Notes: a model not told the origin generated them from the sequence alone. DNA of 64,000 nt from Alphaproteobacteria bacterium (GCA_033345195.1 JAWPOE010000008.1:112940-176939); one strand, 5' to 3'; numbered from the stretch's first letter, positions 35,986-60,014 are shown. Translations and numbers: made by a program.

Positions 35986-36654
35986 ATGTCATACATGTGG
36001 AACGAATTCAACATAAAAACCTTTCCGGCGGAAACAATTGTTTACCGCGATGGCGTGTTTTGTCCGGAATTATCAACACTGACCAATGACCCGATAAATG
36101 ATACATTTGATTTACCGGTACATATTATATATATTGGCGAAATCGCCGGGAAAAACGATTTAAATATTAATGTCGGTACAGAAAATCAAAAAGTCGTTTT
36201 AAGTGTTAATATAAAAAATAAAAAGCCGGCTTTTTTTAACATTTTTATTAAAAACGCCGGGAAAAATTCTGAAATTAGCGGTACTGTGTTAATGGATAAT
36301 CATTCTGAATTAACATATGATTGTGTGGCACATCACTTAGATAAAAATACCGGCATTTTGATAAAAAATAAATTAATTGGCCGGAAAAATTCAAATTCAA
36401 AATTATCAGGGACTGCGATTATTGATAAAGATTGTGAAAATTGTAATTCTGATGTCGGTTTTGTCGCAATGGTGGAACAAGATGCAAAAATTGATTTTAT
36501 GCCGGCACAAAGAATTTCATCTGTCCCAATTTCAGCAGAACATAGTGCCAGTATTTATAAGCCAACAGACGCACAAATTTTATATCTGCGTCAGGCAGGT
36601 CTGGGTACCATCGAAATCGATAATGTTTTAAAAGAAGCATTTTTACAGGATTAA
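35986..36654 (+). CDS. Short SufB/SufD-family protein (SufD-like C-terminal beta-helix region only, 222 aa)
   Basis: C-terminal segment ISAEHSASIYKPTDAQILYLRQAGLGTIEIDNVLKEAF matches the conserved SufB/SufD C-terminus (..H.A.VG.lDeeqlFYLrSRG...ea..li..aF). No sufB or sufC adjacent. Confidence 0.5.
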   Translation: MSYMWNEFNIKTFPAETIVYRDGVFCPELSTLTNDPINDTFDLPVHIIYIGEIAGKNDLNINVGTENQKVVLSVNIKNKKPAFFNIFIKNAGKNSEISGTVLMDNHSELTYDCVAHHLDKNTGILIKNKLIGRKNSNSKLSGTAIIDKDCENCNSDVGFVAMVEQDAKIDFMPAQRISSVPISAEHSASIYKPTDAQILYLRQAGLGTIEIDNVLKEAFLQD

Positions 36655-36660
36655 TAATAA

Positions 36661-36692
36661 AAACCGCCAAACGGCGGTGTTTTTATTTTTTC
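36661..36692. terminator. Bidirectional rho-independent terminator (ACCGCCaaacGGCGGT flanked by A/T runs), shared by the SufD-like gene and rpmJ
   Basis: Perfect 6-bp GC-rich hairpin with T-runs on both strands. Confidence 0.7.
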
Positions 36693-36817
36693 TTAAAGCC
36701 CTGTTTCGCTTTGAACTTTGGATTGCTAGGGTCAATTAAGATAACTTGTTTACCACGACGGATTTGTTTTACATTACCGCGTTTCTTCCAAGCCTTTAAT
36801 GAACTTAAAAATTTCAT
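36683..36817 (-). CDS. rpmJ: 50S ribosomal protein L36 (bL36, Cys-less non-zinc form). 44 aa, below the ORF-track length cutoff.
   Basis: Hand translation MKFLSSLKAWKKRGNVKQIRRGKQVILIDPSNPKFKAKQGFKKK resembles E. coli YkgO/alphaproteobacterial L36 (MKV.SSL......D..I.RR.G...I.....P.FKA.QG). Confidence 0.8.
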   Translation of the reverse strand: MKFLSSLKAWKKRGNVKQIRRGKQVILIDPSNPKFKAKQGFKKK

Positions 36818-36903
36818 GACTTAATCCTTTTTACATGGCGATTATAAACATATTTTTTGAAAAATCAAATAATAATATTATTTATTGTTGTAGTTGTAGG
36901 CCC

Positions 36904-37127
36904 TGTTGAAACTGTTGAAAACTGTTTTTAGTTTTTTATTAACAGTTTTTTAACAAAAAAATCCAGGTTTTATGCGGATGTTTGTAAAAATGTTGAAAAT
37001 TAGTCAAAATAATTAACTGTTGATAAATTTGCACTTTTCAACAGATTTTAACAATTTTGGTGGTGTGTTTTTTATGCTTGTTGAAAATTGTTGAAATTGG
37101 TATAATTATCAACAGGACGGATAGAGA
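36904..37127. promoter_or_regulatory. Upstream regulatory region of virB3-virB4: at least 7 direct or inverted copies of TGTTGAAA, one TTAA-N7-TTAAC (CtrA-box-like) at 36939..36954, and a TATAAT -10 at 37101..37106
   Basis: Motif copies at 36904, 36913, 36991, 37018 (CTGTTGATAAA), 37035 (inverted TTTTCAACAG, forming a palindrome with 37018), 37079, 37089 and 37109 (inverted). Confidence 0.55.
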
Positions 37128-37424
37128 ATGAAACAACAAGTATTAAAAGCATTGGCAAATCCGGCACTGATTTTTTATGTGCCGTATTCACTGGCGGTTT
37201 TGAATTTTGCCATTCAATTTATTATTTTTATGGTGATTTTCTTTGTGTCCTTGGCGTTAACCAAGGGTAATAATCCGGTGCCACCATTATATTTTCTGAT
37301 TTCTGTTGTTGTTGTGCACTCTATAATCGCAGTGTTTGCAAAACGTGACCCACAGTTGGGACAAATTGTGTCGGCAAAAGTACAATTGTTTAAAAAGAAA
37401 ATACCAGGAAAATTAGCAGCATGA
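37128..37424 (+). CDS. virB3: Type IV secretion system protein VirB3
   Basis: About 98 aa, two TM segments, LANPALIFYVPYSLAVLNF motif similar to VirB3/RvhB3. Start codon overlaps the virB4 start. Confidence 0.75.
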   Translation: MKQQVLKALANPALIFYVPYSLAVLNFAIQFIIFMVIFFVSLALTKGNNPVPPLYFLISVVVVHSIIAVFAKRDPQLGQIVSAKVQLFKKKIPGKLAA

Positions 37425-39847
37425 AAGATATACAAGGTTTTTTTGATTATTTCGCAGGCAGTGGTTTTCCAATCACTTTGACAGTGATTGCGATGATAGT
37501 TATTTGTGTGTTTTTGGTGCTGTTGATGTATGTTCCTGTATTGACAAAAAAATTCTTTCCACGTTTTGGTTATGCAAAATATGCAAATTATCTGCCTTTT
37601 AAAACAGTTTTCAAAGATAATTCAATGTCACTGGAAGACGGCAGTTTGTTGCGTGTTTATCGTATCGCAGGTGTTCAGACCAGTATGCAAGATGATGAAA
37701 CCAAGGCAAAATTCTTGGATTTACGTACACAATTATTTAACCAAATCCGTGACCCAGGGGTTGTATTGCGTTTCTATATGGTGCGTGATGCGGCCGATGA
37801 AAATACAAACTATGAATTTAGACAGCCGACACTGCAACGTATTTATAATAAATGGCGTGGTCAGGGGTTAAAGATTTTCTTGAACAGTTATTATGTTGTT
37901 ATTTCTGTTAATGGTGGTGATGCACGTGCAAAATTAAATCAATATTGTAATTATATTGAATCAATGTTGGCGGCATATAGACCGCAATTGTTGAAAAATG
38001 ATAAAGAAGATAATATGGCGCGTTTCTTTGGTCGTATCTTGTCACCAATTTCAAAACCAGAACCAAAGACTGCTGATAATAATATCGCAAATTTGGTGAC
38101 TGTTGATGATGTAGAGTTTTTACGTAATGGACTGGTTAGATATATCAGTGGCGGAAATCAAATGTATGCGTCATTGCTGTCGTTCAAGATGTCGCCAGAT
38201 TATTTAGATGAAGAATTTTTCGATACTGTTGGAACAATACAAACTGAAATGATAACTATGAATGCGTTCCGTATTATGGGGGCGTCGGCAGTTGAAAAAA
38301 CAATTCGTCAAAGACGTATTACATCTGAATCAACACAAACATCAACAGATGAACAAATCGCCGAAGCCGAAGGCGCAATGGATGAAAATGTGTCCGGAAA
38401 TCAGAGTTTGGTAAACTATTATCCTGTATTTATTTTGTTTGGGGCAACACCAGAGGAACTGAAAAAGTATGTTGATGAATTTAAAAAGATTGCCGCGACA
38501 TTTGGTATTTCGCCAATTAATGAAACATTTGCATCAAAGGTTTCTTGGTTTTCACAAATTCCAGGGTTCGATGTTTTTCCACGCAGTTTTAAGTTATTAT
38601 CACGTACGGCGGCAATTTCAATCCCAATGTCCAGTCAACCACGCGGTATTGAAAATTCGGACTGGGGGCCGGGACCATTGGTGGTTTTCCCAACAGCCCA
38701 GGGAACACCATATCAATTTCAATTCCATGTTTCTGATAAACCGGTGGCGGTGGCACATACGCTGACAATTGGTCCAACAGGTGGTGGTAAAACAACATTA
38801 TTCTCGTTCCTGATTGCGCAGAGTTTAAGACATCAAAAGTTAAAGGCATTCTTCTTTGACCGTAATAAAGGGGCAGAAATATTTACACTGGCGGTTGGTG
38901 GTAAATATATCACAATGAATGGTAAAGAAAAAAATACCAAGAAGGATGAACAAGATTTCTTGGCGCATTTAAATCCATTAAAAATGTCTGATACGGCGGC
39001 AAATCGTGCGTTCTTGCGTCGTTGGTTTGCAATTATTTCGGGACAGTCTGATACACAATCAGCAGATGAAATCGCACGTGCAGTGTCTGTGAATTTTGAC
39101 TATTTGTCTGATAATGACAGAATGTTGAAAAATCTGTGGGAAAGCTGTTTTTCGTCGACTGGTAATATGCGACCAGCGTTGAAAAAGTGGGTTGACCCAT
39201 TGCAATATGGTGATATGTTCAATGAAACAGAAGATACACTGGATTTGCAATCAAGATTAACAACGTTTGATTTTACAGATATTTTACAAGATGAAACATT
39301 ATCCCCGGCGGTGATTTCATATATATTGCACAGAATTAATAACACAACCGTTGCCGGCGGTAATCCGTCGCTGATTATGATTGACGAAACGGCACCTATG
39401 TTGGAAAACAAGATGTTCCGTGATAACTTTATAGTTGGTTTGCAAGAAGGACGTAAAAATCGTCAGGCATATATGGTCGCGTTCCAGCGTGCAAATGTTT
39501 TAGATAAATTGGGAATTGGCGACGTGGTGCGTGGTCAGGCACAGACAGTGTTGTTCTTTCGTAATCCGGCGGCAGATGCACGTGATTATGAACATTGGAA
39601 TTTAAATCCGTTGGAAATGGCATTTATTCAGGGCAAGGCGTATCCAAACCTGAAACGTGCAGTGTTGTTATCGCGTCCGGTTAATGGGGAATCTGTGATT
39701 TTAAATACTGAATTAGGTGGTTTGGGCAATATGTTGCGATTGTTTGAATCTGGACGCTCATCTGTATTATTGGCCGAAGAATTATATAAACAGTATGGTA
39801 ATGCGTTTGTAGACGAATATCTGAAAAAGCAAGGTGCCATGGAATAA
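37421..39847 (+). CDS. virB4: Type IV secretion system ATPase VirB4
   Basis: 808 aa, Walker A GPTGGGKTT, CagE/TrbE/VirB4 family architecture. Confidence 0.9.
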   Translation: MKDIQGFFDYFAGSGFPITLTVIAMIVICVFLVLLMYVPVLTKKFFPRFGYAKYANYLPFKTVFKDNSMSLEDGSLLRVYRIAGVQTSMQDDETKAKFLDLRTQLFNQIRDPGVVLRFYMVRDAADENTNYEFRQPTLQRIYNKWRGQGLKIFLNSYYVVISVNGGDARAKLNQYCNYIESMLAAYRPQLLKNDKEDNMARFFGRILSPISKPEPKTADNNIANLVTVDDVEFLRNGLVRYISGGNQMYASLLSFKMSPDYLDEEFFDTVGTIQTEMITMNAFRIMGASAVEKTIRQRRITSESTQTSTDEQIAEAEGAMDENVSGNQSLVNYYPVFILFGATPEELKKYVDEFKKIAATFGISPINETFASKVSWFSQIPGFDVFPRSFKLLSRTAAISIPMSSQPRGIENSDWGPGPLVVFPTAQGTPYQFQFHVSDKPVAVAHTLTIGPTGGGKTTLFSFLIAQSLRHQKLKAFFFDRNKGAEIFTLAVGGKYITMNGKEKNTKKDEQDFLAHLNPLKMSDTAANRAFLRRWFAIISGQSDTQSADEIARAVSVNFDYLSDNDRMLKNLWESCFSSTGNMRPALKKWVDPLQYGDMFNETEDTLDLQSRLTTFDFTDILQDETLSPAVISYILHRINNTTVAGGNPSLIMIDETAPMLENKMFRDNFIVGLQEGRKNRQAYMVAFQRANVLDKLGIGDVVRGQAQTVLFFRNPAADARDYEHWNLNPLEMAFIQGKAYPNLKRAVLLSRPVNGESVILNTELGGLGNMLRLFESGRSSVLLAEELYKQYGNAFVDEYLKKQGAME

Positions 39848-39854
39848 TATATAA

Positions 39855-40466
39855 ATGTTAAAATATTTATTTCTGGTTTTATTTGTTCTGATTTCGTTGC
39901 CAGTGATGGCAGATTCTTGTTTAGAATACAAAAAGATGCCACGCGTTATTTTAAATACACCTGATTGGGAAAAAACAGTTGTTCAACCGCGTGTTCCAAT
40001 GGATTTATGGCATGGAAATGTTATCGCAACATTAACAGATAATTATGATATTGTTGTTGATATTAATCCAATTGATGATGGATTTTGTGTCGCATTAAAA
40101 ACGGTTGATGCGGTTGTTGGGTATAATGACTTTTTAGTTCAGATTGATATCAGGCATATCCCAGAAACATGTACGTATAATGCAGTGTTAAAACATGAAG
40201 ACAAGCATATAAAAACTTATTTATCTGTTATCGATGATTTTAAACCAGAATTACAACGGTCTATATTTTCAGCCGCAGATTCTGTAATGCCAATATTTGT
40301 TAAAACAAAAGATGATGTTGATAGGGCTGTTGATATGATTAATGCAGAATTTCAAGCACACCCTGATATGATTCTGATAAAACAAAAGATTAAGGCCGCC
40401 GAAGAAATAAAAAATAAACAAGTAGATCAGATTGAAACAGGGGATGATTTACGTAATTGTTTATAG
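39855..40466 (+). CDS. Secreted protein with an HExxH zinc-metalloprotease motif (LKHEDKHI), predicted secreted Zn-dependent protease family (COG5661/DUF922-like). 8 bp downstream of virB4.
   Basis: Signal peptide MLKYLFLVLFVLISLPVMA, HEDKH motif, about 200 aa. Confidence 0.5.
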   Translation: MLKYLFLVLFVLISLPVMADSCLEYKKMPRVILNTPDWEKTVVQPRVPMDLWHGNVIATLTDNYDIVVDINPIDDGFCVALKTVDAVVGYNDFLVQIDIRHIPETCTYNAVLKHEDKHIKTYLSVIDDFKPELQRSIFSAADSVMPIFVKTKDDVDRAVDMINAEFQAHPDMILIKQKIKAAEEIKNKQVDQIETGDDLRNCL

Positions 40467-40561
40467 TTTCTTTTAAGATTGTTTTCCTATATTTTTATAT
40501 GTTGCAAATGATGCATTTTTTCCGCTAATATCAAAATATAATATTAAGTAAGGATTTTGAT

Positions 40562-41449
40562 ATGAAAGGAATTATTTTAGCAGGGGGCAGTGGCAGCAGA
40601 CTTTATCCATTGACCAAAACAACATCAAAACAATTGTTGCCTGTATATGACAAGCCGATGATTTATTATCCTTTGTCGACATTGATGGCGTTTGGAATTC
40701 GCGATATTTTGATTATTTCAACACCCCAAGATACACCAAATATTGAAAAATTGTTCGGTGATGGGGCGAAAATTGGTCTGAATATTCAATATGCAATTCA
40801 ACCAGAACCAAAAGGTATTGCCCAGGCATTTACAATTGGGGCTGATTTTATTGGAAACGATGATGTATGTTTAATTCTGGGGGATAATATATTCTATATG
40901 GGGGGACAATTCCCAATGTTTATGGACGAGGTTGAAAAGAATACCGGTAAACGTGCAACAATTTTTGCATATCATGTTTCAGACCCAGAAAGATTTGGAG
41001 TGGTCGAATTTGATAAAGATTTAAAGGCAATTTCAATCGAAGAAAAACCAAAAAATCCAAAATCAAATTATGCATCGATCGGTTTATATTTTTATCCAGG
41101 TGATGTCGTTGAAAAGGCACGCGCATTAAAACCGTCGGCGCGTGGGGAACTGGAAATTACAGATTTAAATAATATGTATTTACGTGAAGGACGTATGTCT
41201 GTCGTTCCAATGCGACGGGGAAATGCGTGGCTGGATGCGGGTACACCAGACAGTCTGATGGAATCAGGACAATTTGTCCAAATTATTGAAAAACGACAGG
41301 GATTAAAGATTGCGTGTATCGAAGAAATTGCCTATAAGCAAGGTTTTATCAATGATATACAGATGCGTGCATTGATTGATGAATTAAAATCAGGGAATTA
41401 TAAAGATTATTTAGAAAAAGTGTACGGAGAGAAACATGAACTTTATTAA
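40562..41449 (+). CDS. rmlA: Glucose-1-phosphate thymidylyltransferase
   Basis: MKGIILAGGSGSRLYPLT... canonical RmlA. Confidence 0.9.
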   Translation: MKGIILAGGSGSRLYPLTKTTSKQLLPVYDKPMIYYPLSTLMAFGIRDILIISTPQDTPNIEKLFGDGAKIGLNIQYAIQPEPKGIAQAFTIGADFIGNDDVCLILGDNIFYMGGQFPMFMDEVEKNTGKRATIFAYHVSDPERFGVVEFDKDLKAISIEEKPKNPKSNYASIGLYFYPGDVVEKARALKPSARGELEITDLNNMYLREGRMSVVPMRRGNAWLDAGTPDSLMESGQFVQIIEKRQGLKIACIEEIAYKQGFINDIQMRALIDELKSGNYKDYLEKVYGEKHELY

Positions 41450-41987
41450 AACAGAAATTGATGGGGTTATTATTGTGGAACCGCGCGTGTTTACAGATGC
41501 GCGTGGGTACTTTTTCGAAAGTTATAATGCTGCAGAATTTGAAAAAAATGGTATTCCAAATGTTTTTGTCCAAGATAATCAATCAATGTCATCATATGGA
41601 GTTGTGCGCGGATTGCATTGTCAGACCGGTATTCATGCCCAGGCAAAGTTAGTGCGTGTTTTACATGGTGCTGTTCTGGATGTGGCGGTGGATATCAGAA
41701 AAAATTCGCCAACATTTGGTAAATATGTGGCGGTTGAATTAAGTGCAGAAAATAAAAGACAATTGTTCATACCACGTGGATTCTTGCATGGATTTTCTGT
41801 GTTAAGTGATACGGCGGTTTTTGCGTATAAATGTGATAATTTATATGCACCACATTCAGAATTTGGTATCAGGTTTGATGACCCAGATATTGGTGTCGAT
41901 TGGCGGGTGCCGGCAGATAAAATAATCGTTTCAGATAAAGATAAAATTGCCAAGGGGTTGAAAGATGTTCCTGATAACGGGTTGTAA
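41436..41987 (+). CDS. rmlC: dTDP-4-dehydrorhamnose 3,5-epimerase
   Basis: Cupin fold, RGLH motif region. Confidence 0.9.
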   Translation: MNFIKTEIDGVIIVEPRVFTDARGYFFESYNAAEFEKNGIPNVFVQDNQSMSSYGVVRGLHCQTGIHAQAKLVRVLHGAVLDVAVDIRKNSPTFGKYVAVELSAENKRQLFIPRGFLHGFSVLSDTAVFAYKCDNLYAPHSEFGIRFDDPDIGVDWRVPADKIIVSDKDKIAKGLKDVPDNGL

Positions 41988-42786
41988 TGGTCAATTGGGA
42001 CAAGAGCTGGCAAAATTATTGCCAGATGCAATTTGTGCAGATGTTAGCACACTTGATATAACAGATGAAATGGCGGTGCAGAATTTTGTGCGTGATAATA
42101 ATGTTGATGTAATTATTAACTGTGCGGCATATACCGCCGTGGATAAGGCAGAAGATGATATTGCGCTGGCAACAAAAATTAATGTTGATGGACCGCGAAA
42201 TCTGGCGAAAACAGGCGCAAAAATAATCCATATTTCAACAGACTATGTTTTTGATGGCAATGGTTGCAGACCATATGGCGCAGATGATGAAACAAATCCA
42301 GTGTCTGTTTATGGTAAAACAAAGCGTGCCGGTGAAGTTGCAGTTCTGGAAAACGCAGATATGGCGGTTGTTATCAGGACTGCCTGGTTATATTCGGTAA
42401 ATGGTAATAACTTTGTAAAAACAATGCGTCGATTGGGGGCGGAAAAAGATTCAATTAATGTTGTTGCCGACCAAATTGGAACACCAACATTTGCAGGAAA
42501 TCTGGCACAGGCGATTGTTAAGATTATTCCACAAATGACACATGAAAACAGTGGTATTTATCATTTCACAGATGAAGGCGTGTGTTCATGGTATGACTTT
42601 GCATGTGAAATTATGGAAATGTCGGGCTTGCATTGTATGGTAAATCCGATAAAATCAAGTCAATATCCAACGCGTGCATCACGACCATTTTATAGTGTAT
42701 TAGATAAAGATAAAATAAAACAGGTTTTTGGTGTTGAAATTAATCATTGGAAAAAGGGGTTAGAAAAATGTATAAAACAATTCTGA
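41965..42786 (+). CDS. rmlD: dTDP-4-dehydrorhamnose reductase
   Basis: Short-chain dehydrogenase-like, GCNGQLG N-terminus. Confidence 0.85.
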   Translation: MFLITGCNGQLGQELAKLLPDAICADVSTLDITDEMAVQNFVRDNNVDVIINCAAYTAVDKAEDDIALATKINVDGPRNLAKTGAKIIHISTDYVFDGNGCRPYGADDETNPVSVYGKTKRAGEVAVLENADMAVVIRTAWLYSVNGNNFVKTMRRLGAEKDSINVVADQIGTPTFAGNLAQAIVKIIPQMTHENSGIYHFTDEGVCSWYDFACEIMEMSGLHCMVNPIKSSQYPTRASRPFYSVLDKDKIKQVFGVEINHWKKGLEKCIKQF

Positions 42787-43775
42787 TAACAGGTGGGGCA
42801 GGTTTTATTGGTTCAAACTTTGTACCATATTTTTGTGAAAAATACCCAGAATATAAGATTATAAATCTGGATAAACTGACATATGCAGGGAATTTAGATA
42901 ATTTAAAAGAATGTGAAAACAGTTCTAATTATACCTTTGTCCAAGGTGATATTTGTGATGCGGAATTAATCGAAAAAATATTCAATGAATATGATGTTCG
43001 GGGTGTTATTCACTTTGCCGCAGAAAGTCATGTTGATAATTCTATAAAGGGTCCAGGTGCATTTATTAATACAAATATTGTTGGAACGTTTAATTTGTTG
43101 GATGCGGCGCGTCGTCACTGGATGGAAAAACCAGGTGTTGTTAAGTCGGGATATGAAAATGCGCGTTTTCATCATATTTCCACGGACGAAGTTTATGGTA
43201 CACTGGGTGATACAGGTATGTTCCGCGAAGATACACCATATGCACCAAACAGTCCATATTCTGCGTCCAAGGCATCATCTGATTTCTTGGTGCGTGCGTA
43301 TCATCATACATATGGCATGAATGTGACAACATCAAATTGTTCAAATAATTATGGACCAAAACAGCATAATGAAAAATTAATCCCACATATTATTGCCAAG
43401 GCATTATCACTGCAACCATTGCCAATTTATGGAACAGGTGAAAATATTCGTGACTGGTTATATGTTCTGGATCATTGCAAGGCAATTGATTTGATTTATC
43501 ATAATGGTAAGTCTGGTGAAACATATAATATTGGTGGGCGAAACGAAAGAAATAATATCACAATTGTAAAAACAATTTGTGCAATTTTAGATGAACGCAG
43601 ACCACGGGCAGACGGTAAAAAATATGAAGACTTAATTACCTTTGTTGCAGACCGCGCCGGACATGATTTCAGATATGCAATTGATGCGACTAAATTAGAA
43701 AATGAACTGGGGTGGCGGGCAGATGAAACGTTTGATACCGGTATTGTAAAGACGGTTGAATGGTACTTGAATTAA
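42768..43775 (+). CDS. rmlB: dTDP-glucose 4,6-dehydratase
   Basis: ILITGGAGFIGSNF, YxxxK. Start at the internal ATG (MYKTILITGG). Confidence 0.9.
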   Translation: MYKTILITGGAGFIGSNFVPYFCEKYPEYKIINLDKLTYAGNLDNLKECENSSNYTFVQGDICDAELIEKIFNEYDVRGVIHFAAESHVDNSIKGPGAFINTNIVGTFNLLDAARRHWMEKPGVVKSGYENARFHHISTDEVYGTLGDTGMFREDTPYAPNSPYSASKASSDFLVRAYHHTYGMNVTTSNCSNNYGPKQHNEKLIPHIIAKALSLQPLPIYGTGENIRDWLYVLDHCKAIDLIYHNGKSGETYNIGGRNERNNITIVKTICAILDERRPRADGKKYEDLITFVADRAGHDFRYAIDATKLENELGWRADETFDTGIVKTVEWYLN

Positions 43776-43819
43776 ACAAAAAAATATGGTATTATCACCG
43801 TATCAGAAAGGAGTTTTAG

Positions 43820-44185
43820 ATGAAAAAATTATTGTTAAAGTTAAATTTTGCAATTGTTGGTATTATGGCAACAAGTGTTGCAAAGGCAGCGGAGGCAGGT
43901 CTTAATATTAATACAAATGCATTGTGTGGTTTGTTTCAACAATTTGGTGGTATTTTTAAAGTATTGCGTACGCTGGCATTTGTTGGTGCGGCGTTTATTT
44001 TGGCAGGCTGGGCATGGGGCTGGATTTCCGGTGGCGAAGTAAAATTGGATGATGTCAAAAAGAAAGGTATTGGTATGTTGGTTGGTTTTGTCGTTCTGTT
44101 TGGCGTTGGTGCAATCGTGACCGTATTTATGAATATGGCGGGCGCTGGTGGTTCATTGGGTTGTGATATGAGTGACGTTTTCTAA
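43820..44185 (+). CDS. VirB2/TrbC-like T4SS pilin subunit
   Basis: 121 aa, signal peptide (..VAKA|AEA), two hydrophobic helices separated by a short loop, Gly-rich C-terminus. Architecture typical of VirB2/RvhB2 paralogs. Confidence 0.55.
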   Translation: MKKLLLKLNFAIVGIMATSVAKAAEAGLNINTNALCGLFQQFGGIFKVLRTLAFVGAAFILAGWAWGWISGGEVKLDDVKKKGIGMLVGFVVLFGVGAIVTVFMNMAGAGGSLGCDMSDVF

Positions 44186-44243
44186 AACCAAAATATAATA
44201 AAAGAATACGCGGATTATTCCGCGTTTTTTTGTTTTTATAAAA

Positions 44244-44816
44244 TTAAAATATATATCGTGCGCCAATTGAAAATTCAGACATTGTATGAAACAGTGTGTC
44301 GTTGATGGGTATATACTGATACTGTAATAACATTGATACATCGTCGCCGGGGAATGTAAACATAACACCAATGCCCAGACGGGTGGTGACGTTGTTTTCT
44401 GATTCTTTGGTTGATAATTCTTCGTATAAATTTATGTATTCGATTTTATTATAAACCTTGTAATTGCCAACACCGAATGATGTAAAGAAGTCAAAGTCGC
44501 GGTTTATATTATAATATGCGAATACGTCAAATCCGTATGCCATATAATAAATTTCATGATTTATTGAATCAAATGTCGATATATATTCCATGTCATTTGT
44601 GCTGGAATGGGTGAAAAATAATTCAACACCGAAATTATTGCCAATGCGTGCGCCGGCATTAATTGTCCCAGAATAATATCGATCGTCCAGTTCTGTGTCA
44701 ATTGTGTAATCCGCGATATTTAATCCGGCATCAATCCCAATATATGGCTTAAAATTTGAATATGCGTTTGTCGTACCGCATATCAGTACAGGTAATATAA
44801 AAAATAGTTTATTCAT
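44244..44816 (-). CDS. Outer-membrane beta-barrel protein (OmpA-like/Omp25/OmpW-type porin family), C-terminal Phe
   Basis: Signal peptide, alternating amphipathic beta-strand pattern, terminal ..YIF. Confidence 0.65.
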   Translation of the reverse strand: MNKLFFILPVLICGTTNAYSNFKPYIGIDAGLNIADYTIDTELDDRYYSGTINAGARIGNNFGVELFFTHSSTNDMEYISTFDSINHEIYYMAYGFDVFAYYNINRDFDFFTSFGVGNYKVYNKIEYINLYEELSTKESENNVTTRLGIGVMFTFPGDDVSMLLQYQYIPINDTLFHTMSEFSIGARYIF

Positions 44817-44932
44817 TATATTTGTCCCCAGTTATGTTTTTATTGTAGTATTTTAAATATCATACGCAAATGTATTTTGTAACAGATTGATTTTATGATA
44901 TAATAAATGAAAAAATAGTAGGAGATTTTGCA

Positions 44933-46747
44933 ATGGCAGAAAACAAAAAATTGAAATATATCAAGACAGCGCAGGATTTATCAGAATTTAATACATCTAT
45001 AAAAGAATATATAAATAGAGGTAAATCTTATTCTGAACTGATGGATTATGTTATAGACCCTGATTTTGATTTAGATTTGTTTTATAAATCACAGGGATAT
45101 TATGCGGAAAGTGATGATTTTTATGCTATGTATTTCAATTTGGTAAGTAATACAATATCTGGATTAAATAAAAAACAAAAGGATGAATTTGCAAATCGTC
45201 TGGGTGATTCTTTGAAATCTTATTGGGATTTGGTTTATATGTTCGGTGGTGCAGAAAAATGGAATAGGGATGATTTACAAAAAAGGGCGAAGTATTCGCC
45301 ATATAACATTGTTTTTCATGCAGCAGATAAAAGAGATTTGTTCCGAGATGAGGCATTCCTGTTCAAAAAAACAATATCGCCAGATAATCAGGTTTTATTA
45401 AGAAATTCTGGTTTTGTTAATCCTTATGAATATAATTTTTCAAATCAACGTATGCAAGATCCTAAGATAAGTATGCCGTTCTTGCCAAAAGGAAATACGC
45501 ATGGTTTATATGGAAATGATAAACATTTGTTTGAAAAATTCCAAAAAGATTTTGGATGGGCCTTTGATCCAAAGACTGCGTTCAAGAATGCGCAACATCC
45601 AAATGTTTTGTTTGATTTGCGTTCAGGCAAGATTCAGCCAAGTGTGGCAATGTCTGAATTGAATTCATCTGATTTTAAGTATATTATCCCAAAAAATGAT
45701 TTTAAAGATTTATCAGCAAGCGAGCTTTATGATATCTTGTCTGCGCGCGATGTTCGTTGGGAACAATGGCAGGTTGCGTCAATGATGGAAATGATTGTTG
45801 ACAAGTCGCCAGATGTTAATAATGAAGAATATCTGAATCAAATAATGGAAATCATTGTTGTTAATAATCAACTGTTTTTGAAAAAAACAGAAAATAACCA
45901 TAGATTATGGTTGAAAATAGAAGATAAATTTAAAAATATAGTGCAACAAAACAAGGCGTATGAAGAAAACTTGAAAGGTTCAATTGAGAAATTGCGCGCG
46001 GAAATCAAAGAAAAAGAATCTGATTTAAAACCGTTACAAGAAATGTTGTCTGTATTAAGGGATGAAAAAGAATCGTATGTGAGTCTGGAACGTCAACTGG
46101 AATCTTTTTCATATAGGGGAAGTGATTTTGTAAAGGAGAATGTGTCTGCGATAAAAAGAAATATAGATAATACAGTAAATGGTAAGTTTGATAGTATGGC
46201 ATTGCCAGAAAAACCATGGAAAATAATTGCCTTTCCAAAAGAGAAAAAAGAATATGAAGAACTTTGTGCATTGATTGCCAATGTTAATCAACGTAACGAG
46301 TATAGAAAAAACTGTCGTGATAATACATTTGGCGAACATGAATTTAATTTGACAGCAAAAATGAATGAACTTGGGTTAAAACAAAGAGAAGTAGAATTTG
46401 AAAGAAGCAGAAAAGCCGATGTTCTAAATCAACAAAGTTGGGATCAAAGAAGATTTTATGGTTCAGCAAAACGTATATCAGATAATCTTGAAAAAAATGT
46501 TAGCGACCAAAAACTTGCCAAGGCAGAGCGTATGCAACAAGCGCGGGAAAAACTGAAAGAAAAGGGTGTTGTGTTAGGACAGAAAAGTGGTGTGATAGAG
46601 GCTGATAAAAAAGCAGAAAAAATCATCTTTGATAAAGCAGTTGAAAAAATGATGAAAAAATTGCGTGCGACAACTGCAAACGCAAAAAAGTCAGACAAAG
46701 AACTGATGGAAATTGCAAAAAGATTGGTCACAGAAAATCAAAAATAA
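44933..46747 (+). CDS. Large (604 aa) soluble hypothetical protein with a C-terminal coiled-coil/charged region. No recognisable domain. Very AT-rich.
   Basis: Long intact ORF with good terminators on both sides; no signal peptide or TM. Confidence 0.6.
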   Translation: MAENKKLKYIKTAQDLSEFNTSIKEYINRGKSYSELMDYVIDPDFDLDLFYKSQGYYAESDDFYAMYFNLVSNTISGLNKKQKDEFANRLGDSLKSYWDLVYMFGGAEKWNRDDLQKRAKYSPYNIVFHAADKRDLFRDEAFLFKKTISPDNQVLLRNSGFVNPYEYNFSNQRMQDPKISMPFLPKGNTHGLYGNDKHLFEKFQKDFGWAFDPKTAFKNAQHPNVLFDLRSGKIQPSVAMSELNSSDFKYIIPKNDFKDLSASELYDILSARDVRWEQWQVASMMEMIVDKSPDVNNEEYLNQIMEIIVVNNQLFLKKTENNHRLWLKIEDKFKNIVQQNKAYEENLKGSIEKLRAEIKEKESDLKPLQEMLSVLRDEKESYVSLERQLESFSYRGSDFVKENVSAIKRNIDNTVNGKFDSMALPEKPWKIIAFPKEKKEYEELCALIANVNQRNEYRKNCRDNTFGEHEFNLTAKMNELGLKQREVEFERSRKADVLNQQSWDQRRFYGSAKRISDNLEKNVSDQKLAKAERMQQAREKLKEKGVVLGQKSGVIEADKKAEKIIFDKAVEKMMKKLRATTANAKKSDKELMEIAKRLVTENQK

Positions 46748-46819
46748 AAATAACCCGGGAAACCGGGTTTTATTGTTATAAAAGGTGTGGTATAATACCA
46801 TGTATAAAAGGGTTTTTAT

Positions 46820-47683
46820 ATGAAAGTTTTTAATAAAATTCGTGAATTAGATGGAACAAGAAAAATTTACTTTTGTGGTATAAAAATCATTAGTTATAAA
46901 CAGGCTGTGAAAAAGATAGATTTTTCATATGCTATTCTTAAATATAAAGGGGTAAATAAAGCAAAAAATTTAAAGAATTTAATTCTTGGGTCATCGCATG
47001 GACGTGACGGTTTTGTTCCTGGAAAATCAGATTTTAATTTGTCGCAATCGTCGCTTGATTTATACCGTATTTATCATTTATACAAATATGTGTTAAAAAA
47101 TAACGGAAAAAATCTTGAAAATATAATCGTTTTTTATTCCGTTTTTCATGCAGGATTACAACTTGAAAAAACCAGTAAGTGGAAATATTGCATAATATAC
47201 AAAACGTTATACGATATAAAATATGCGTTTCCATTGGCACTTGATGATTCTTATTTGGTAAATGAAATAAACGGGCAAATAGATACAGTGTCTTGTCCAG
47301 ATGATTTTCGTGGTAAATCTGATAATTATGAAAATAAATATGAATCAGATGCAAAAATACTTGTTGAAAAACATCTTAAAAATACGTGCAGAAATAATAA
47401 TCAAATAAAATACCTGGCCAAATTGGTTGATATGGCACGGAAACATAAACAAAATGTTTATGTTGTTTTGCCACCATATCGTTCGGACTATTTAAAACAT
47501 TTGCCAGAACAACAGGTTGTTTTTAGGGAATTGTTCGAATTTTTAGACAAAAACAAAGATGTAAAATTGTTAAATTTACAAGATGATAAAGATTTTATAG
47601 ATTCCGATTTTAATTCTGTTGATCATTGCAGCGAAGACGGTGGAATAAAACTTACCAAAAAAATAAAAAAAGCATTAAAATAA
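46820..47683 (+). CDS. Hypothetical protein, possibly SGNH/GDSL-like hydrolase (GSSHG near the N-terminus, D-H near the C-terminus). Very AT-rich.
   Basis: Intact 287-aa ORF followed by a terminator hairpin ACACCacaaGGGGGTGT plus T-run. Confidence 0.5.
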   Translation: MKVFNKIRELDGTRKIYFCGIKIISYKQAVKKIDFSYAILKYKGVNKAKNLKNLILGSSHGRDGFVPGKSDFNLSQSSLDLYRIYHLYKYVLKNNGKNLENIIVFYSVFHAGLQLEKTSKWKYCIIYKTLYDIKYAFPLALDDSYLVNEINGQIDTVSCPDDFRGKSDNYENKYESDAKILVEKHLKNTCRNNNQIKYLAKLVDMARKHKQNVYVVLPPYRSDYLKHLPEQQVVFRELFEFLDKNKDVKLLNLQDDKDFIDSDFNSVDHCSEDGGIKLTKKIKKALK

Positions 47684-47699
47684 AAACACCACAAGGGGG

Positions 47700-47814
47700 T
47701 GTTTTTATTAAGGCCCGCCTATGCCAAGGCTACGGCGAGGCACTGAATTTTCTAAACAAAAATACCGCAAAAGCGGTATTTTTAGAAAATTCGTGGTTGC
47801 GGGGAATGGATTTG
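47700..47814. repeat. Direct repeat copy A (115 bp): downstream flank plus the 3' 21 nt of tRNA-fMet, without the rest of the tRNA
   Basis: Near-identical to 47952..48066. Contains the terminator ATACCGCaaaaGCGGTAT and ends with tggttgcggggaatggatttg (3' end of tRNA-fMet, minus orientation). Confidence 0.85.
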
Positions 47815-47951
47815 GCTGCGCACCAACTGCGCAAATCAACCTTTGGTTGACCGGCATACTGCCGTCTGCCTTTTGCTGGTTGTGAACCATCTTTGTTCAA
47901 TGGTTCAAATCCAACACAACACACGTTTAAATAAAAAATGCATCACAAGGA

Positions 47952-48045
47952 TGTTTTTATTAAGGCCCGCCTATGCCAAGGCTACGGCGAGGCACTGAAT
48001 TTTCTAAACAAAAATACCGCAAAAGCGGTATTTTTAGAAAATTCG

Positions 48046-51435: not shown

Positions 51436-52713
51436 TTGAGAGAGAATTTTTTGACCGGAAAAATATTATCTGTTAATCGTAGAAAGTATGCCGTCGGATT
51501 GTTTTGGCAACCGTTGGGTGCAGGGTTTGTGCCACGAAATTATGCGCGTACATTGGCAAAAAATGTTGATAAAAAATTAAATCTGTATGTTGATTATCGT
51601 TCGATGATTGGGTTGGGATCGCGACGGTTCGGCCAGCATGTCGGTATGTTAAGCGCAGCGGCAGAAATTATGGAAAGTTTTTCCGAGTATACTTCTTTCT
51701 TGGCAGTGTTTCAGACGGGAAAATGTTTTTATCTGGTTGCAGCACGTAATGGGATTATTTTAGAAGATAAAATTTTTGATTCCGAAGATGCAGCGCGTGC
51801 AGAATATGCAAAATTATCCGAAATTCCAGATTGGGGTGCGTTCTTTGCACCTGGAACATGGGCGATGCCGCGTGCCGCAGAAAGAAATCTGGCTGATTTA
51901 TTAAATGGTCATTCGCATGCAAGTCTGCATTCAATCAGTCATGTCAGAACTTGGACTTTTTCACTGGTTTTATTTGGTGTGTTTTTGCTGATGGTGTTTG
52001 GGGTTTTTAGTGATTCTTTTAAATTGGTGTTTGCGCCCAGACCAAAAACAACAGAATTAGACCCGGAATTGGTTGCAGAATATAAACGACAAATCGAAGA
52101 AAAAAATAAAGAACTGGACAAGCAATTTGAAATTGAAAAACAGCAGCCACCAGAACCAATTGTTATGCCGTATGAATTGTTGCCTGATGTCCAGGCGCGT
52201 GCAAAACAGTGTTATCAGGCGATTGGATTTTTAATGCAACCAATTGTTGGTTGGAACCAGGTTAATGTTGATTGTGGCGAGATACATGCAATTGCCGAAT
52301 TTAGACGTGACTTTGGAACGTTAGGTGAGTTTTATAATATTGCAACACAGTTGATGCCGGGTGCATTCGTGCAAGAAGTTAATGATGATACATTGCGTGT
52401 TCAGGTTGCCTTGCCAAAGTTGGAAATCTTTTCGTCCCAAGATGAACGCGATGCAGAAACAGTCGTGCGTGACATTGTGACTGCGTTTCAGGGTATAGAT
52501 ATGTCGGTTGAAACCAATATTGTGACAGATTCACTGACCAACGGTGTTGATGTGGCGAATGTTAATGTTGTTGAAATTGCGGCGGAATCAAAACTGGTGC
52601 CGATGCAGTTTATGCAAATATTTGAAGAATTTGGCGGTGTCTATATGGTGCAATGTGCATGGGATGTGGCGTCGCGTACATGGAACTATGAGGTGATTAT
52701 CTATGCAAAATAA
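51436..52713 (+). CDS. Bitopic inner-membrane protein, GspL/PilO(type IVb)-like assembly-platform component: cytoplasmic N-domain about 185 aa, single TM, periplasmic C-domain about 220 aa
   Basis: Architecture: single TM WTFSLVLFGVFLLMVFGVF in the middle. N-terminus KILSVNRRKYAVGLFWQPL resembles GspL N-termini. Lies first in an operon with a GspE-like ATPase and GspF-like platform. By my hand count the TTG start may be 51426, about 10 nt from the track coordinate. Confidence 0.45.
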   Translation: MRENFLTGKILSVNRRKYAVGLFWQPLGAGFVPRNYARTLAKNVDKKLNLYVDYRSMIGLGSRRFGQHVGMLSAAAEIMESFSEYTSFLAVFQTGKCFYLVAARNGIILEDKIFDSEDAARAEYAKLSEIPDWGAFFAPGTWAMPRAAERNLADLLNGHSHASLHSISHVRTWTFSLVLFGVFLLMVFGVFSDSFKLVFAPRPKTTELDPELVAEYKRQIEEKNKELDKQFEIEKQQPPEPIVMPYELLPDVQARAKQCYQAIGFLMQPIVGWNQVNVDCGEIHAIAEFRRDFGTLGEFYNIATQLMPGAFVQEVNDDTLRVQVALPKLEIFSSQDERDAETVVRDIVTAFQGIDMSVETNIVTDSLTNGVDVANVNVVEIAAESKLVPMQFMQIFEEFGGVYMVQCAWDVASRTWNYEVIIYAK

Positions 52714-53404
52714 AAAAATGTTTTTATTAGGTACAGTTTTTTGTGGGCTGATGATGGTTTTTGGTGGCGCATTCGCCGCAGATGATATTGTCGTCGAAGA
52801 AGAAGTTATTGTCGAAGATGTTGATTTAGAACAGGTGTCGGCCGATGCCGTCGCAAATTACGATGTGTCTGGGTCTTTGTTTCAACAGATTACTGATTTG
52901 GAACAAGAAAAAATATTAATGCAGTTGGAGAAAGAACGTGCACAGTTGGACCTGGAACTGGATAGACTGGCCGCAGAAAAAATTAAACTGCATATGGAAA
53001 TTGATACTTTGTCTGGACGCCAGGAACAGCAACAGCAAGAAATTGAAACACAAAAAGCAAAACTGGAAGCAGAGGCGGCACGTATCGAAAAAGAAAAGGA
53101 AAGTTGGCTGGCCGAGGCTGAAAAGAAAGCAACTGCGCGTGTTGCAAGCGATAAAAGACCAACAGAAGATGGTGCAGAACCAGAAATTGATATTACAAAA
53201 AAATATCGTCTGGTTAATGTTATTGGTGCAGGTTCACAATTACAGGCAACAATCGAAGACCTGAATACAGGGCAAAGTAAACGTATCAGCGTTGGCCGTG
53301 ATATAGACGGTTTGGTCGTTAAGTCTATTTCGTTGTACGATGGTGTTGTGTTTGTTGGGTCTGATGGTATGACACAAAATCTGAATGTCAGTGGTGGAAG
53401 ATAA
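52703..53404 (+). CDS. Periplasmic/IM-anchored coiled-coil protein with a C-terminal PilP/GspC-HR-like beta domain
   Basis: N-terminal signal/anchor, long EQ-rich coiled coil, C-terminal LVNVIGAGSQLQATIEDLNTGQSKRISVGRDIDGLVVKSISLYDGVVFV resembling the PilP/GspC secretin-interacting domain. Confidence 0.4.
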   Translation: MQNKKMFLLGTVFCGLMMVFGGAFAADDIVVEEEVIVEDVDLEQVSADAVANYDVSGSLFQQITDLEQEKILMQLEKERAQLDLELDRLAAEKIKLHMEIDTLSGRQEQQQQEIETQKAKLEAEAARIEKEKESWLAEAEKKATARVASDKRPTEDGAEPEIDITKKYRLVNVIGAGSQLQATIEDLNTGQSKRISVGRDIDGLVVKSISLYDGVVFVGSDGMTQNLNVSGGR

Positions 53405-53407
53405 AAA

Positions 53408-55036
53408 ATGGTTCGTTCAAAAGAATCTTTGGAAGATATCAGCAAGTTGCCATCAATACCGGCAGGTATGGAAAATGGTGACAGCAAGGATATAATTGAT
53501 TATCTGTTCGCGAATGGTAATAAATTGCTGACTGCGACAGGTGCAATGTTGGAACTGCCCCGTGATTCACAGAGCTTAATTGCGTATTTTGCAGGTGGTG
53601 AAATTATTATTTCGCGTACGCATCGTTATGATGGGCGTGTGTTGGCGTTCTTGGATTTGTTGGCGCGTCGTGGGCGACCAATGCGTGAACCGTTTTATTC
53701 TGATTTGGGTTTGGTTTCGAATATTTATAAATCGCATGAAATGCGCTTGGGCGGTGGTGCGCGTTCACGCATAGATTTTGATAACCAAATGCAGAAAGAT
53801 TTTGTCGATATTATTGCCAAGGCCGCATCGCATAAGGTTTCAGACGTTCATATAGAGGTTGCAGACCAAACAACAATCTATTTCCGTGTCGATGGCAGTA
53901 TGCAACCAGTGCTGGAATATAATTCACAGTGGGGTGAATCGTTTGTTCGTGCCGCATTTGCATCGGCAGATATGTCAAATGCAAACTATGCCCAGAATGA
54001 ATATCAATCTGCACAGAAAGATGGACGTACCCCATTACGTGGAACCAAGGATTTATATTTGCCGTCTGGTGTATTGGGTGTGCGTATGCAATTTAACCCA
54101 ATCGCATTTGGCAGTCGGTATGTGGTTATGCGACTGTTGTATGATAACCCGTCCGAAGGTATTAAAATTGAACAGGAATTTGGCCCATATGAACAACGTT
54201 TGTTGGCACGTATGCGTTCGTTCCCAACAGGATTGGTGATTGTTGCCGGTCCAACCAGTTCTGGTAAATCAACAACATTGGTGCGTAATATGTCGCTGAT
54301 GTTAAAAGAACGTAATTATGAAATTAATATGATTACGGTGGAAAACCCTGTTGAACAAAAGATTTTTGGCGCACGTCAAATGCCGGTGGTAAATACAACA
54401 AACGAAGAACAACGCGAAGAAAAGTATGTAGAGGCGTTGGCAGCGGCGTTAAGAAGTGACCCTGATACATTGATGGTGGGCGAAATTCGAACATTGGCGG
54501 CGGCACAATTAACAGTGCGTGGTGCGCTGTCCGGACATAATGTGTGGACGACATTGCATGCGAATTCTGCCATGGCGGCGTTAACGCGTTTGTTAGATTT
54601 GGGTATCGAACCTTTTAAATTAAAAGAAGAAACATTGATGCGTGGTTTGGTGTCGATGCGACTGTTTAAAAAAGTTTGTCCGTATTGTCGTGAACCGTTG
54701 GCAAATCATCCAGAACGTGGCGCGTATCGTCGCGTTATGGGGGCGTATGGTGAAATTGGTCTGCGTCAGGTTTATCAGCGTGGTACGGGGTGTGAACACT
54801 GTAATGGGACAGGGCATTTGGGACGTATCAAGGCCGGTGAAATTATCATTACAAACAGTGAATTTTTACGTCTGGCATTATCTGGTAATACAGATGGGGC
54901 TGTGCGATATTGGCTGGAAGAAATGGATGGGCGCACGTTAAAGGAATCTGCGACATCATTAATGTTACAGGGAATTATCAGTGTTGATGAATTAGAACGC
55001 TGGGTTGGACAGTTGAATCAACCAGGGGTTTATTAA
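53408..55036 (+). CDS. GspE/PilB/PilQ-family secretion ATPase (type II secretion / type IV pilus assembly ATPase)
   Basis: Walker A GPTSSGKST, Asp/His boxes (LMVGEIR...TLHAN), C-terminal tetracysteine CPYC...CEHC typical of GspE/PilB. Confidence 0.85.
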   Translation: MVRSKESLEDISKLPSIPAGMENGDSKDIIDYLFANGNKLLTATGAMLELPRDSQSLIAYFAGGEIIISRTHRYDGRVLAFLDLLARRGRPMREPFYSDLGLVSNIYKSHEMRLGGGARSRIDFDNQMQKDFVDIIAKAASHKVSDVHIEVADQTTIYFRVDGSMQPVLEYNSQWGESFVRAAFASADMSNANYAQNEYQSAQKDGRTPLRGTKDLYLPSGVLGVRMQFNPIAFGSRYVVMRLLYDNPSEGIKIEQEFGPYEQRLLARMRSFPTGLVIVAGPTSSGKSTTLVRNMSLMLKERNYEINMITVENPVEQKIFGARQMPVVNTTNEEQREEKYVEALAAALRSDPDTLMVGEIRTLAAAQLTVRGALSGHNVWTTLHANSAMAALTRLLDLGIEPFKLKEETLMRGLVSMRLFKKVCPYCREPLANHPERGAYRRVMGAYGEIGLRQVYQRGTGCEHCNGTGHLGRIKAGEIIITNSEFLRLALSGNTDGAVRYWLEEMDGRTLKESATSLMLQGIISVDELERWVGQLNQPGVY

Positions 55037-55038
55037 GC

Positions 55039-59339: not shown

Positions 59340-60014
59340 ATGAATAATATAGATGCGTTCAGACGTGCGCAAATTGATTTGAAAAATCAACAACGATTGT
59401 TAAATAATCAATTTGGTGATATGTCGCCGATTGATAATAATAAGTTGCCGAATATGAAACAGGGCAGTGTGGTTATCTTGTCTAAAAGAATAAAAGATAT
59501 ATTAAAATTAATACAAGAATCGACCATGGAAGATGGCAAAGAAATCCCATTTTTCTTGTACGGAAAAACCGAAGGACAATTGGTTTATTTTACAGATATA
59601 GATGTAGATATAGATGACCTGCAAACGGTAGAGGCAAATTTTGCAAACCTGAACCAGGGGTTGCAAGAATTTATCAACAAATCAAAAAAAGACGGAACAG
59701 ATATTGTTGCGCATGGTCATTCGCATGGAAAAAGTATAAATAATTATCATTTAAATTTTTCATTGGGTGATATGAATGCGTATAAAGATATGCGTCTGAA
59801 TAACGAAGTTTTTAGAACAGGAAAAATAGAACTTTGTTCGTGTCTGTTGACGGACGGAAATTATAATTTCTTGTTCTTTGATGGGAATGATTATTATAAA
59901 TTTAATGAGGTTTATGTTCAGGCGGAAAATGGCGATTTTATTGAAAAATTGCCATGCTATAAAGCTAACAATAATAATATCTTGCGTAATATTTTTCGTG
60001 GGCGTGGGGAATAG
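59340..60014 (+). CDS. Hypothetical protein with a possible JAB/MPN(+) metalloprotease-like motif (..E.G..; AHGHSHG..x..S..D). AT-rich.
   Basis: Motif EGQLVYF ... HGHSHGKSINNYHLNFSLGD loosely fits JAMM (E..HxHx7-11Sx2D). Assignment is speculative. Confidence 0.35.
   Translation: MNNIDAFRRAQIDLKNQQRLLNNQFGDMSPIDNNKLPNMKQGSVVILSKRIKDILKLIQESTMEDGKEIPFFLYGKTEGQLVYFTDIDVDIDDLQTVEANFANLNQGLQEFINKSKKDGTDIVAHGHSHGKSINNYHLNFSLGDMNAYKDMRLNNEVFRTGKIELCSCLLTDGNYNFLFFDGNDYYKFNEVYVQAENGDFIEKLPCYKANNNNILRNIFRGRGE

Follow-up and report, generated by a model that had tools for sequence, protein, structure and literature searches.

The locus described here raises the question whether a short gene lying directly behind virB3 and virB4 on the chromosome of a gut alphaproteobacterium belongs with these two genes to a type IV secretion system (T4SS), or whether it only shares their operon. 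We analysed a stretch of 64,000 nucleotides (nt) with the accession and coordinates GCA_033345195.1 JAWPOE010000008.1:112940-176939, referred to below as the window, and all coordinates are relative to it. A preliminary description had presented virB3, virB4 and the gene for a 203-amino-acid (203-aa) secreted, protease-like protein as a T4SS fragment, with a VirB2-like pilin gene on the far side of a group of dTDP-rhamnose genes. The explanation we tentatively favour, at a little less than an even chance, is that the locus is an islet of a T4SS whose periplasmic accessory, specific to the clade and co-expressed, resembles a metallohydrolase. A T4SS role of the 203-aa protein is plausible but unproven.

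The window is part of the core chromosome of Candidatus Enterousia, order Rs-D84 (Alphaproteobacteria). Outside the genes treated below, Pfam scans identified translation factors, tRNA synthetases, MreC/PBP2, topA, dnaG, gyrB and lpx genes. Rs-D84, including Enterousia, has reduced genomes of 0.75-1.0 Mb, in which the tricarboxylic acid cycle, the respiratory chain and the standard transporters for uptake are missing (PMC12306168). The word 'secretion' does not occur in the main text of the same paper, which describes Rs-D84 (PMC12306168). In order to compare the locus among relatives we scanned one genome per species and obtained 80 loci at the species level. These come from animal and human guts and are labelled Candidatus Enterousia or uncultured Alphaproteobacteria/Rickettsiales; among them is a closed chromosome of 958,618 bp (OZ007020.1, locus L049).

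A conserved unit of three genes

That virB3 and virB4 are genuine, translationally coupled genes was confirmed. The start of virB4 overlaps the stop of virB3 (ATGA), as had been proposed, and all open reading frames (ORFs) are located where the preliminary description placed them. In addition to its Pfam match (Table 1) VirB3 scored only 20.9 against the NCBIfam equivalog NF010474, which has a cut-off of 74. It contains two hydrophobic segments (residues 13-49 and 49-74), and its identity among the relatives was 64-87% (tblastn of the window proteins against the 80 loci). VirB4 matched CagE_TrbE_VirB (PF03135) with an E-value of 2.2e-12 and 47.8 bits (cut-off 21 bits) and TIGR00929 with an E-value of 2e-111 and 373.6 bits (cut-off 643.1 bits). 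It remained under all NCBIfam equivalog cut-offs and is therefore a divergent VirB4. The Walker A motif (GPTGGGKT, at 451) and the Walker B motif (LIMIDE, at 651) are both intact, and identity among the relatives was 77-97% (tblastn).

The third gene follows closely. Its ATG starts 8 bases past the virB4 stop, which leaves a measured gap of 7 nt and agrees with the tight spacing first proposed, and in locus L001 the two genes overlap. We also followed this gene order through the relatives by tblastn and observed virB3, virB4 and the 203-aa gene next to each other in every locus with sufficient sequence (80 of 80). The trio was intact even where the upstream block of dnaG, ychF and a sufBD-like gene is inverted or moved (6 loci) and where the downstream genes differ (many loci).

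Table 1. Positions and main characteristics of the features discussed, in window coordinates.
Feature	Position	Strand	Characteristics
Terminator-like hairpin, bidirectional	36663-36678		6-bp stem, 5 GC pairs, T-runs on both strands; between the sufBD-like gene and rpmJ
Six-copy TGTTGAAA array	36904-37096	five +, one -	In the 290-bp rpmJ-virB3 spacer, copies within 193 bp
Extended -10 element, TGgTATAAT	37098-37106	+	22 nt 5' of the virB3 ATG; read from the sequence, putative function
virB3	37128-37424	+	98 aa; Pfam VirB3 PF05101, 27.2 bits (gathering cut-off 23.9 bits), E 4.9e-6
virB4 (ATPase)	37421-39847	+	808 aa; N-terminal membrane segment
Gene for the predicted exported 203-aa protein, unannotated family	39855-40466	+	C106-x7-H114-E-x-x-H118...N187-x3-D191...C202, plus C22 and C78
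rmlA-rmlC-rmlD-rmlB (dTDP-L-rhamnose)	40562-43775	+	NTP_transferase, dTDP_sugar_isom, RmlD_sub_bind, GDP_Man_Dehyd/Epimerase; Pfam E 1e-72 to 1e-99
Gene for the 121-aa protein, probable divergent VirB2/TrbC-type pilin	43820-44185	+	Signal peptide, two hydrophobic helices, Cys36, Cys115; C-terminus …AGAGGSLGCDMSDVF
Terminator-like hairpin, bidirectional	44208-44225		7-bp stem, 5 GC pairs, T-runs on both strands; between the pilin gene and the convergent outer-membrane protein gene
Outer-membrane protein gene (OMP_b-brl)	44244-44816	-	190-aa outer-membrane beta-barrel; PF13505, E 2.5e-12

The spacer in front of virB3 carries an array of the element TGTTGAAA. Across the window we counted 28 matches to this element, compared to 10 +/- 3 expected. 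The region 5' of virB3 contained it in 79 of 79 loci (L001-L083 and L095), on average 4.7 copies per 300 bp compared to 0.067 in the background (~70-fold enriched), and in nearly every locus this array was the sole TGTTGAAA cluster. A consensus scan detected a promoter-like site at 37081-37109, and the array overlaps the -35 region of this promoter with its extended -10 element. Because TGTTGAAA contains TTGAAA, stacked -35-like boxes are possible, and judged by its sequence the array is a candidate for either a set of regulator-binding sites or a tandem -35-like array. The strong conservation of the array argues that the virB3-virB4-203aa operon is regulated and in use. We also scanned metagenomes for tandem TGTTGAAA with the aim of detecting other T4SS islets controlled by the same regulator; the matches listed comprised only satellite repeats and unrelated organisms. 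The two hairpins in Table 1 are the clearest terminator-like ones and bracket the block as its upstream and downstream boundaries, and the hairpin scan showed no convincing terminator hairpin between virB3 and 44208.

The 203-aa protein and its family

The 203-aa protein has a single N-terminal hydrophobic segment ending VMA/DSC, and is probably exported by the Sec pathway to the periplasm as a soluble protein. The HExxH motif reported in the preliminary description is indeed present, as HEDKH at residues 114-118, and the pattern C-x(6-9)-HExxH was found in 260 of 260 full-length family members. Since this motif is so constant and the three genes are adjacent in every one of the 80 loci, the arrangement of the trio is more than chance.

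We identified 457 close homologues, none of them annotated. A profile search of 1.84 billion representatives returned 456 proteins, each representing a cluster at 50% identity; some of them form a distant tier of 210-250 aa, and the close and distant tiers are homologous (hhalign probability 99.8%, E 5e-30). In an alignment of 48 sequences, down to ~20% identity, G54, C106, H114, E115, H118, D191 and C202 were invariant and C22 and C78 nearly so. D191 is part of a conserved NxxxD motif. Across most relatives the 203-aa protein showed 56-68% identity compared to 77-84% for VirB4 (tblastn), and this faster divergence fits a protein exposed in the envelope.

The AlphaFold2 (AF2) model of the protein reached a predicted local distance difference test score (pLDDT) of 89.3 and a predicted template-modelling score (pTM) of 0.77. 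In it the signal helix is followed by two short strands, then by a long beta-hairpin (55-96), a helix of 38 residues (106-143) and three more helices. HExxH is situated near the start of helix 106-143, and D191 near the end of helix 170-193, two turns before C202. Going by the secondary structure of the model, a disulfide between C106 and C202 would place D191 by H114 and H118, which points to a metal site of the type HExxH+Asp. We thus predict that the protein is a periplasmic metal-dependent hydrolase of an unnamed family with a zincin-type motif.

A divergent pilin candidate

The pilin proposed in the preliminary description is encoded by a 121-aa ORF located 3.35 kb past the stop of the 203-aa gene and 3.97 kb past that of virB4. 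The VirB2 topology claimed for it was borne out, as a signal peptide is followed by two hydrophobic helices with a short charged loop; the hydrophobic segments span residues ~42-70 and ~81-110. The AF2 model, of modest confidence (pLDDT 64.5), shows a plain helical hairpin after the signal helix, with helices 32-71 and 76-107. We found 343 homologues, and the family alignment displays a signal peptide ending A-x-A, the stretch LRTLAFVGAAF…WAW, a charged loop and the stretch GMLVGF…F.

The Pfam family TrbC/VirB2 (PF04956) was reached by 7 of 28 family members (best E 1.1e-5), the copy in the window giving no match at E<=1. We then ranked the 1190 ORFs of five T4SS loci by their score against the family profile. 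The annotated VirB2 proteins came 1st, 3rd and 7th, with E-values that are not significant, and a VirB3 ORF came 2nd. Comparisons of the family by hhalign with one Microvirga VirB2 and with five aligned VirB2 (E 0.055) were not significant either, the family profile found no pilin in the PDB, and Foldseek returned one meaningless match for the model. A virB2-like gene within 8 kb of the trio was observed only in the window and in L005 (within 4 kb), and the gene of more distant relatives is surrounded by unrelated housekeeping genes. L095 has the pilin gene directly 3' of the 203-aa gene, with no rml gene between the two. From the members that reach PF04956, the topology, the ranking and the position in L095 we conclude that the 121-aa protein is probably a very divergent VirB2-type pilin.

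Exactly two cysteines were present in 115 of 120 pilin homologues; the first of them precedes helix 1, and the second is 4-11 residues away from the C-terminus. As both termini of the pilin would be periplasmic, the two cysteines could bridge its ends by a disulfide. By analogy, a Cys36-Cys115 bond could mimic the head-to-tail cyclisation of T-pilin and TrbC.

Comparison with known systems

The rvh T4SS of Rickettsiales has virB3-virB4a-virB6a-e in islet A and virB2 in islet B, lacks virB5, carries duplicated virB4, virB8 and virB9 and is divided into five islets (PMC2653234). The system in Enterousia resembles it as a chromosomal, vertically inherited T4SS in a reduced alphaproteobacterial genome, with a virB3-virB4 islet amid housekeeping genes, a virB2-like gene that is separate in most relatives and no recognisable virB5. 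However, no polytopic VirB6-like gene follows virB4 in Enterousia, where a gene for a predicted soluble periplasmic HExxH protein is found instead. Enterousia VirB4 differs from that of the rvh system also in staying below every equivalog cut-off, and its closest plasmid relative belongs to a conjugative system of Microvirga. The preliminary description had suggested that the 203-aa protein replaces the virB6 genes. This view was not supported, as the protein is predicted to be soluble and periplasmic and is unrelated to any gene in five T4SS operons, and as its family is older than the linkage to virB4 and occurs elsewhere without a T4SS association.

In Helicobacter pylori the ComB competence T4SS is encoded by a comB2-comB3-comB4 operon and a separate comB6-comB10 operon. 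The content of VirB2, VirB3 and VirB4 only is similar, and L095 with the order virB3-virB4-X-virB2 comes closest to it. The HExxH gene of Enterousia has no known counterpart in ComB, and we did not find equivalents of comB6-10 in the window or the loci. A role in DNA uptake in Enterousia would, on this analogy, be pure speculation.

Evaluation of the explanations

If the T4SS-accessory explanation is correct, the locus would be a chromosomal islet of a vertically inherited T4SS in Candidatus Enterousia, and virB3, virB4 and the 203-aa gene would be expressed as one coupled unit from a promoter embedded in the TGTTGAAA array. In the sublineage of the window, transcription may continue through the inserted rmlACDB genes into the divergent virB2-type gene and end at the downstream hairpin (44208-44225). 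The 203-aa product would be exported by Sec to the periplasm, form the disulfides C22-C78 and C106-C202 and bind a metal, probably zinc, by H114, H118 and D191; E115 would act as the catalytic base, making the protein a small zincin-like hydrolase. Its family would predate the linkage and work without a T4SS elsewhere, and would have been captured into the virB3-virB4 operon in this clade. The most likely target would be a periplasmic substrate related to the T4SS, such as the precursor of the pilin or the cell envelope nearby.

Several observations weigh against this explanation. Other T4SS genes (virB6, virB8-virB11 and virD4) were not found in the window or the flanks. Pfam scans of all large ORFs of the window gave no further T4SS gene, and a tblastn search of the window and every Enterousia locus, with 46 T4SS reference proteins as queries, detected only VirB4; the VirB11 queries matched only a PilB/GspE-type ATPase. 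Moreover, synteny is generally high in compact genomes, so that adjacency alone is weak evidence of a shared function. Outside the clade, the family is found in other surroundings. In four loci of free-living alphaproteobacterial relatives (L084-L087) the start of the homologue overlaps the stop of a gene for a membrane protein of 716-728 aa with a Guanylate_cyc domain (adenylate/guanylate cyclase), for instance at 7818-10711 in L084 and 7851-10678 in L086. An SLT-domain gene lies upstream of these pairs and arfB (RF-1 domain) downstream, and judging from the gene order the cyclase and the homologue are a second conserved pairing. In L088/L089, L090, L092 and L216 the homologue is a solitary gene surrounded by housekeeping genes. 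The canonical VirB/Trb operons (Microvirga pMVF16-3, Roseovarius, Xanthomonas and Campylobacter plasmids) contain homologous VirB3 and VirB4 with the same coupling, but virB4 is followed by virB5/virB6-type genes and then virB8-virB11, and none of the five complete plasmid T4SS operons holds a relative of the 203-aa family. Thus the linkage to virB4 is specific to the clade. Finally, Foldseek detected nothing significant for the 203-aa model in the PDB (best E 0.027, TM ~0.1) or BFVD, and the family profiles found no relative among the PDB sequences. Without a match to a peptidase or DUF922 profile, a PDB sequence or a known fold, a hydrolase fold is not demonstrated. Of the earlier term 'protease-like', the invariant zincin-type HExxH is therefore the part that stands, whereas neither a peptidase profile nor a fold match backs the rest.

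We also considered whether the cyclase partner might be a cryptic VirB4. This was rejected, as BLASTP found no similarity and Pfam assigned the protein to Guanylate_cyc.

The main rival to the T4SS-accessory explanation, to which we give a serious chance though one well short of even, is that the 203-aa gene is a hitch-hiker in the operon. It would encode a general periplasmic housekeeping factor, for example for the turnover of envelope proteins or peptidoglycan, with its position an accident of history, kept in place by strong synteny in a reduced genome, and with no role in the T4SS. In line with this, the homologues outside the clade, at 20-35% identity, occupy the unrelated housekeeping or cyclase-coupled contexts described above, and the canonical T4SS loci do without a relative. 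The synteny of the neighbours dnaG, ychF, the sufBD-like gene and rpmJ nearly equals that of the trio, and retention of the gene in genomes of 0.75-1 Mb fits an essential general role. However, the trio stays intact where both flanks change, the spacing between virB4 and the 203-aa gene is tight or overlapping, and the window, L005 and L095 each have a pilin gene 3' of the 203-aa gene. A further point against a mere passenger comes from plasmids, where the family is rare (2 of 72,556 plasmids). One member is encoded on pMVF16-3 of Microvirga sp. VF16 (L222 8815-9447). Among plasmid proteins, by far the nearest relative of the Enterousia VirB4 (31.9% identity over 95%, E 8e-127) is encoded on the same plasmid; it is annotated only as 'hypothetical protein' and belongs to a complete virB2-B11/D4 operon with a relaxase (L217 14045-29211). 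The family member is located 44 kb from this T4SS in the same ~70-kb block, which includes genes for a relaxase, a helicase, a single-stranded DNA-binding protein and a methylase as well as hypothetical genes. We regard this shared mobile block as a hint towards a T4SS link. The second member is encoded on the Methylorubrum AM1 megaplasmid, where no T4SS gene was found at a distance of up to 20 kb.

Under the T4SS-accessory explanation a more specific proposal can be made, which we consider unlikely as it stands. The 203-aa protein would found a new structural family of disulfide-locked periplasmic HExxH...D metallohydrolases and would have been recruited as a T4SS maturation factor in Enterousia/Rs-D84. 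One conceivable function would be to trim the C-terminal tail of the VirB2-like pilin, with a cysteine disulfide that could then replace head-to-tail cyclisation; another would be to take the place of the cell-wall hydrolase VirB1. For pilins such enzymes are known: TraF of RP4, a homologue of serine signal peptidases, processes and cyclises TrbC. The 203-aa protein resembles pilin maturation enzymes as a predicted periplasmic enzyme encoded with T4SS genes, in some relatives beside the pilin gene. In contrast to TraF, it is an HExxH protein. In Agrobacterium, VirB2 is cyclised by an unidentified chromosomal factor (PMC2653234).

Membership of the 203-aa protein in DUF922/COG5661, a family of predicted secreted Zn-dependent proteases, was the label used in the preliminary description, and we consider it improbable. 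Common to both are the signal peptide, the length of ~200 aa, the HExxH motif and the occurrence in Alphaproteobacteria. As in the aspzincins and other minimal zincins (HExxH plus a downstream Asp), we observed a small, apparently secreted protein with an invariant HExxH and an invariant Asp, here in NxxxD, and in the model the order of beta-sheet, HExxH helix and C-terminal helices would be the same. On the other hand the family lacks the GTxDxxYG motif, has four conserved cysteines of its own and gave no significant profile or fold match. The window protein matched no Pfam or NCBIfam model, and neither it nor any of 23 close relatives matched DUF922 (PF06037) or a peptidase family even at E<=10. 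Among 50 distant members one touched DUF922 at E 0.0048 and one touched eCIS_core; the other 49 gave no DUF922 match. The label can therefore not be kept, and the relation would be at most a remote one at the superfamily level.

Very doubtful is the explanation that the protein occupies the slot of VirB5, as a non-enzymatic structural component (stalk or pilus tip) in which HExxH is a structural metal site. The gene does follow virB4 directly, as virB5 does in canonical operons, its product has a signal peptide and ~200 aa, and the C-terminal half of the model is a bundle of long helices. Yet Pfam gave no match of the VirB5/TraC type, and the family showed no similarity to the genes 3' of virB4 in Microvirga (hhalign probability <1% for each of the two) or to the ORFs of the five T4SS loci. 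Family members also occur elsewhere without a T4SS, and the invariant Glu of HExxH favours catalysis over structure. Just as hard to sustain is a two-step substrate or effector, exported by Sec and then released by the T4SS as with pertussis toxin: the Sec signal peptide, the T4SS-adjacent gene and the divergence faster than that of VirB4 agree with it, but the family is widespread in free-living Alphaproteobacteria without a nearby T4SS, the four conserved cysteines and small size fit a resident periplasmic enzyme, and nothing points to a complete secretion channel.

Neighbouring genes and other observations in the window

The order of the genes beyond the trio is as first described, with rmlACDB followed by the pilin-like gene and this in turn adjoining the beta-barrel gene. 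All four RmlABCD enzyme families are found in the window. The preliminary description had regarded the interleaving of rhamnose and T4SS genes as unusual, and the comparison of the relatives took away its significance. Across the 80 loci the complete rml set was directly 3' of the 203-aa gene in 9 and rmlCD (or rmlC) in ~8; rml genes were elsewhere or inverted in 4 and absent from the 8-kb flank in ~58, so that about one relative in four has them. This patchy presence, together with the gene order in L095, indicates a local insertion at a variable spot, and a functional tie of the rml genes to the T4SS was rejected for the same patchiness. The outer-membrane protein gene lay just downstream of the trio in about a third of the relatives, and on the basis of gene order we treat it as a frequent neighbour only, without evidence of a tie to the T4SS.

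Several other characteristics of this part of the window were observed. The G+C content is 0.33-0.37 at 36001-48000 compared to 0.39-0.45 in most of the window, and the low stretch spans the T4SS islet, the rml genes, the outer-membrane protein gene and two unannotated genes 3' of the latter. The sufBD-like gene (35986-36654) encodes a truncated protein of 222 aa whose match to the SufB/SufD core is confined to the C-terminal part of that core (E 9e-11), and its synteny is kept across this clade of reduced genomes. Next to the islet, at 44933-46747, is a gene for a Lys/Glu-rich protein of 604 aa without a Pfam match, which among the relatives was detected in L005 alone, the closest of them (52% identity). 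This protein is fast-evolving or recently acquired and could have a surface or effector-like role.

Further along, a separate cluster resembling a pilus or type II secretion system (51436-56112) comprises a PilO-like accessory protein (PF06864), an unannotated ORF of 233 aa, a T2SSE ATPase and a T2SSF platform protein. The paper on Rs-D84 mentions type IV pili for the UBA9783 lineage only and not for Rs-D84 (PMC12306168). Three more ORFs had no Pfam match: 59340-60014 (224 aa), 60340-61011 (223 aa) and, on the minus strand, 61873-63903 (676 aa).

Significance

Enterousia and other Rs-D84 are common, uncultured gut bacteria with genomes of less than 1 Mb. The strongly conserved VirB4 with its intact ATPase motifs and the conserved regulatory array suggest that the T4SS is functional. 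If this is true, an obvious possibility would be that the system serves interaction with other cells or the uptake of DNA. If in addition the 203-aa protein were a maturation factor, it would be a new T4SS accessory in bacteria which may depend on a T4SS for a life in association with a host or partner. The family itself, with 456 representatives at 50% identity, combines a textbook catalytic motif and a confident model with the lack of a name, a Pfam model or a solved relative. It is an easy biochemical target, and its fixed place in a T4SS operon provides a concrete hypothesis.

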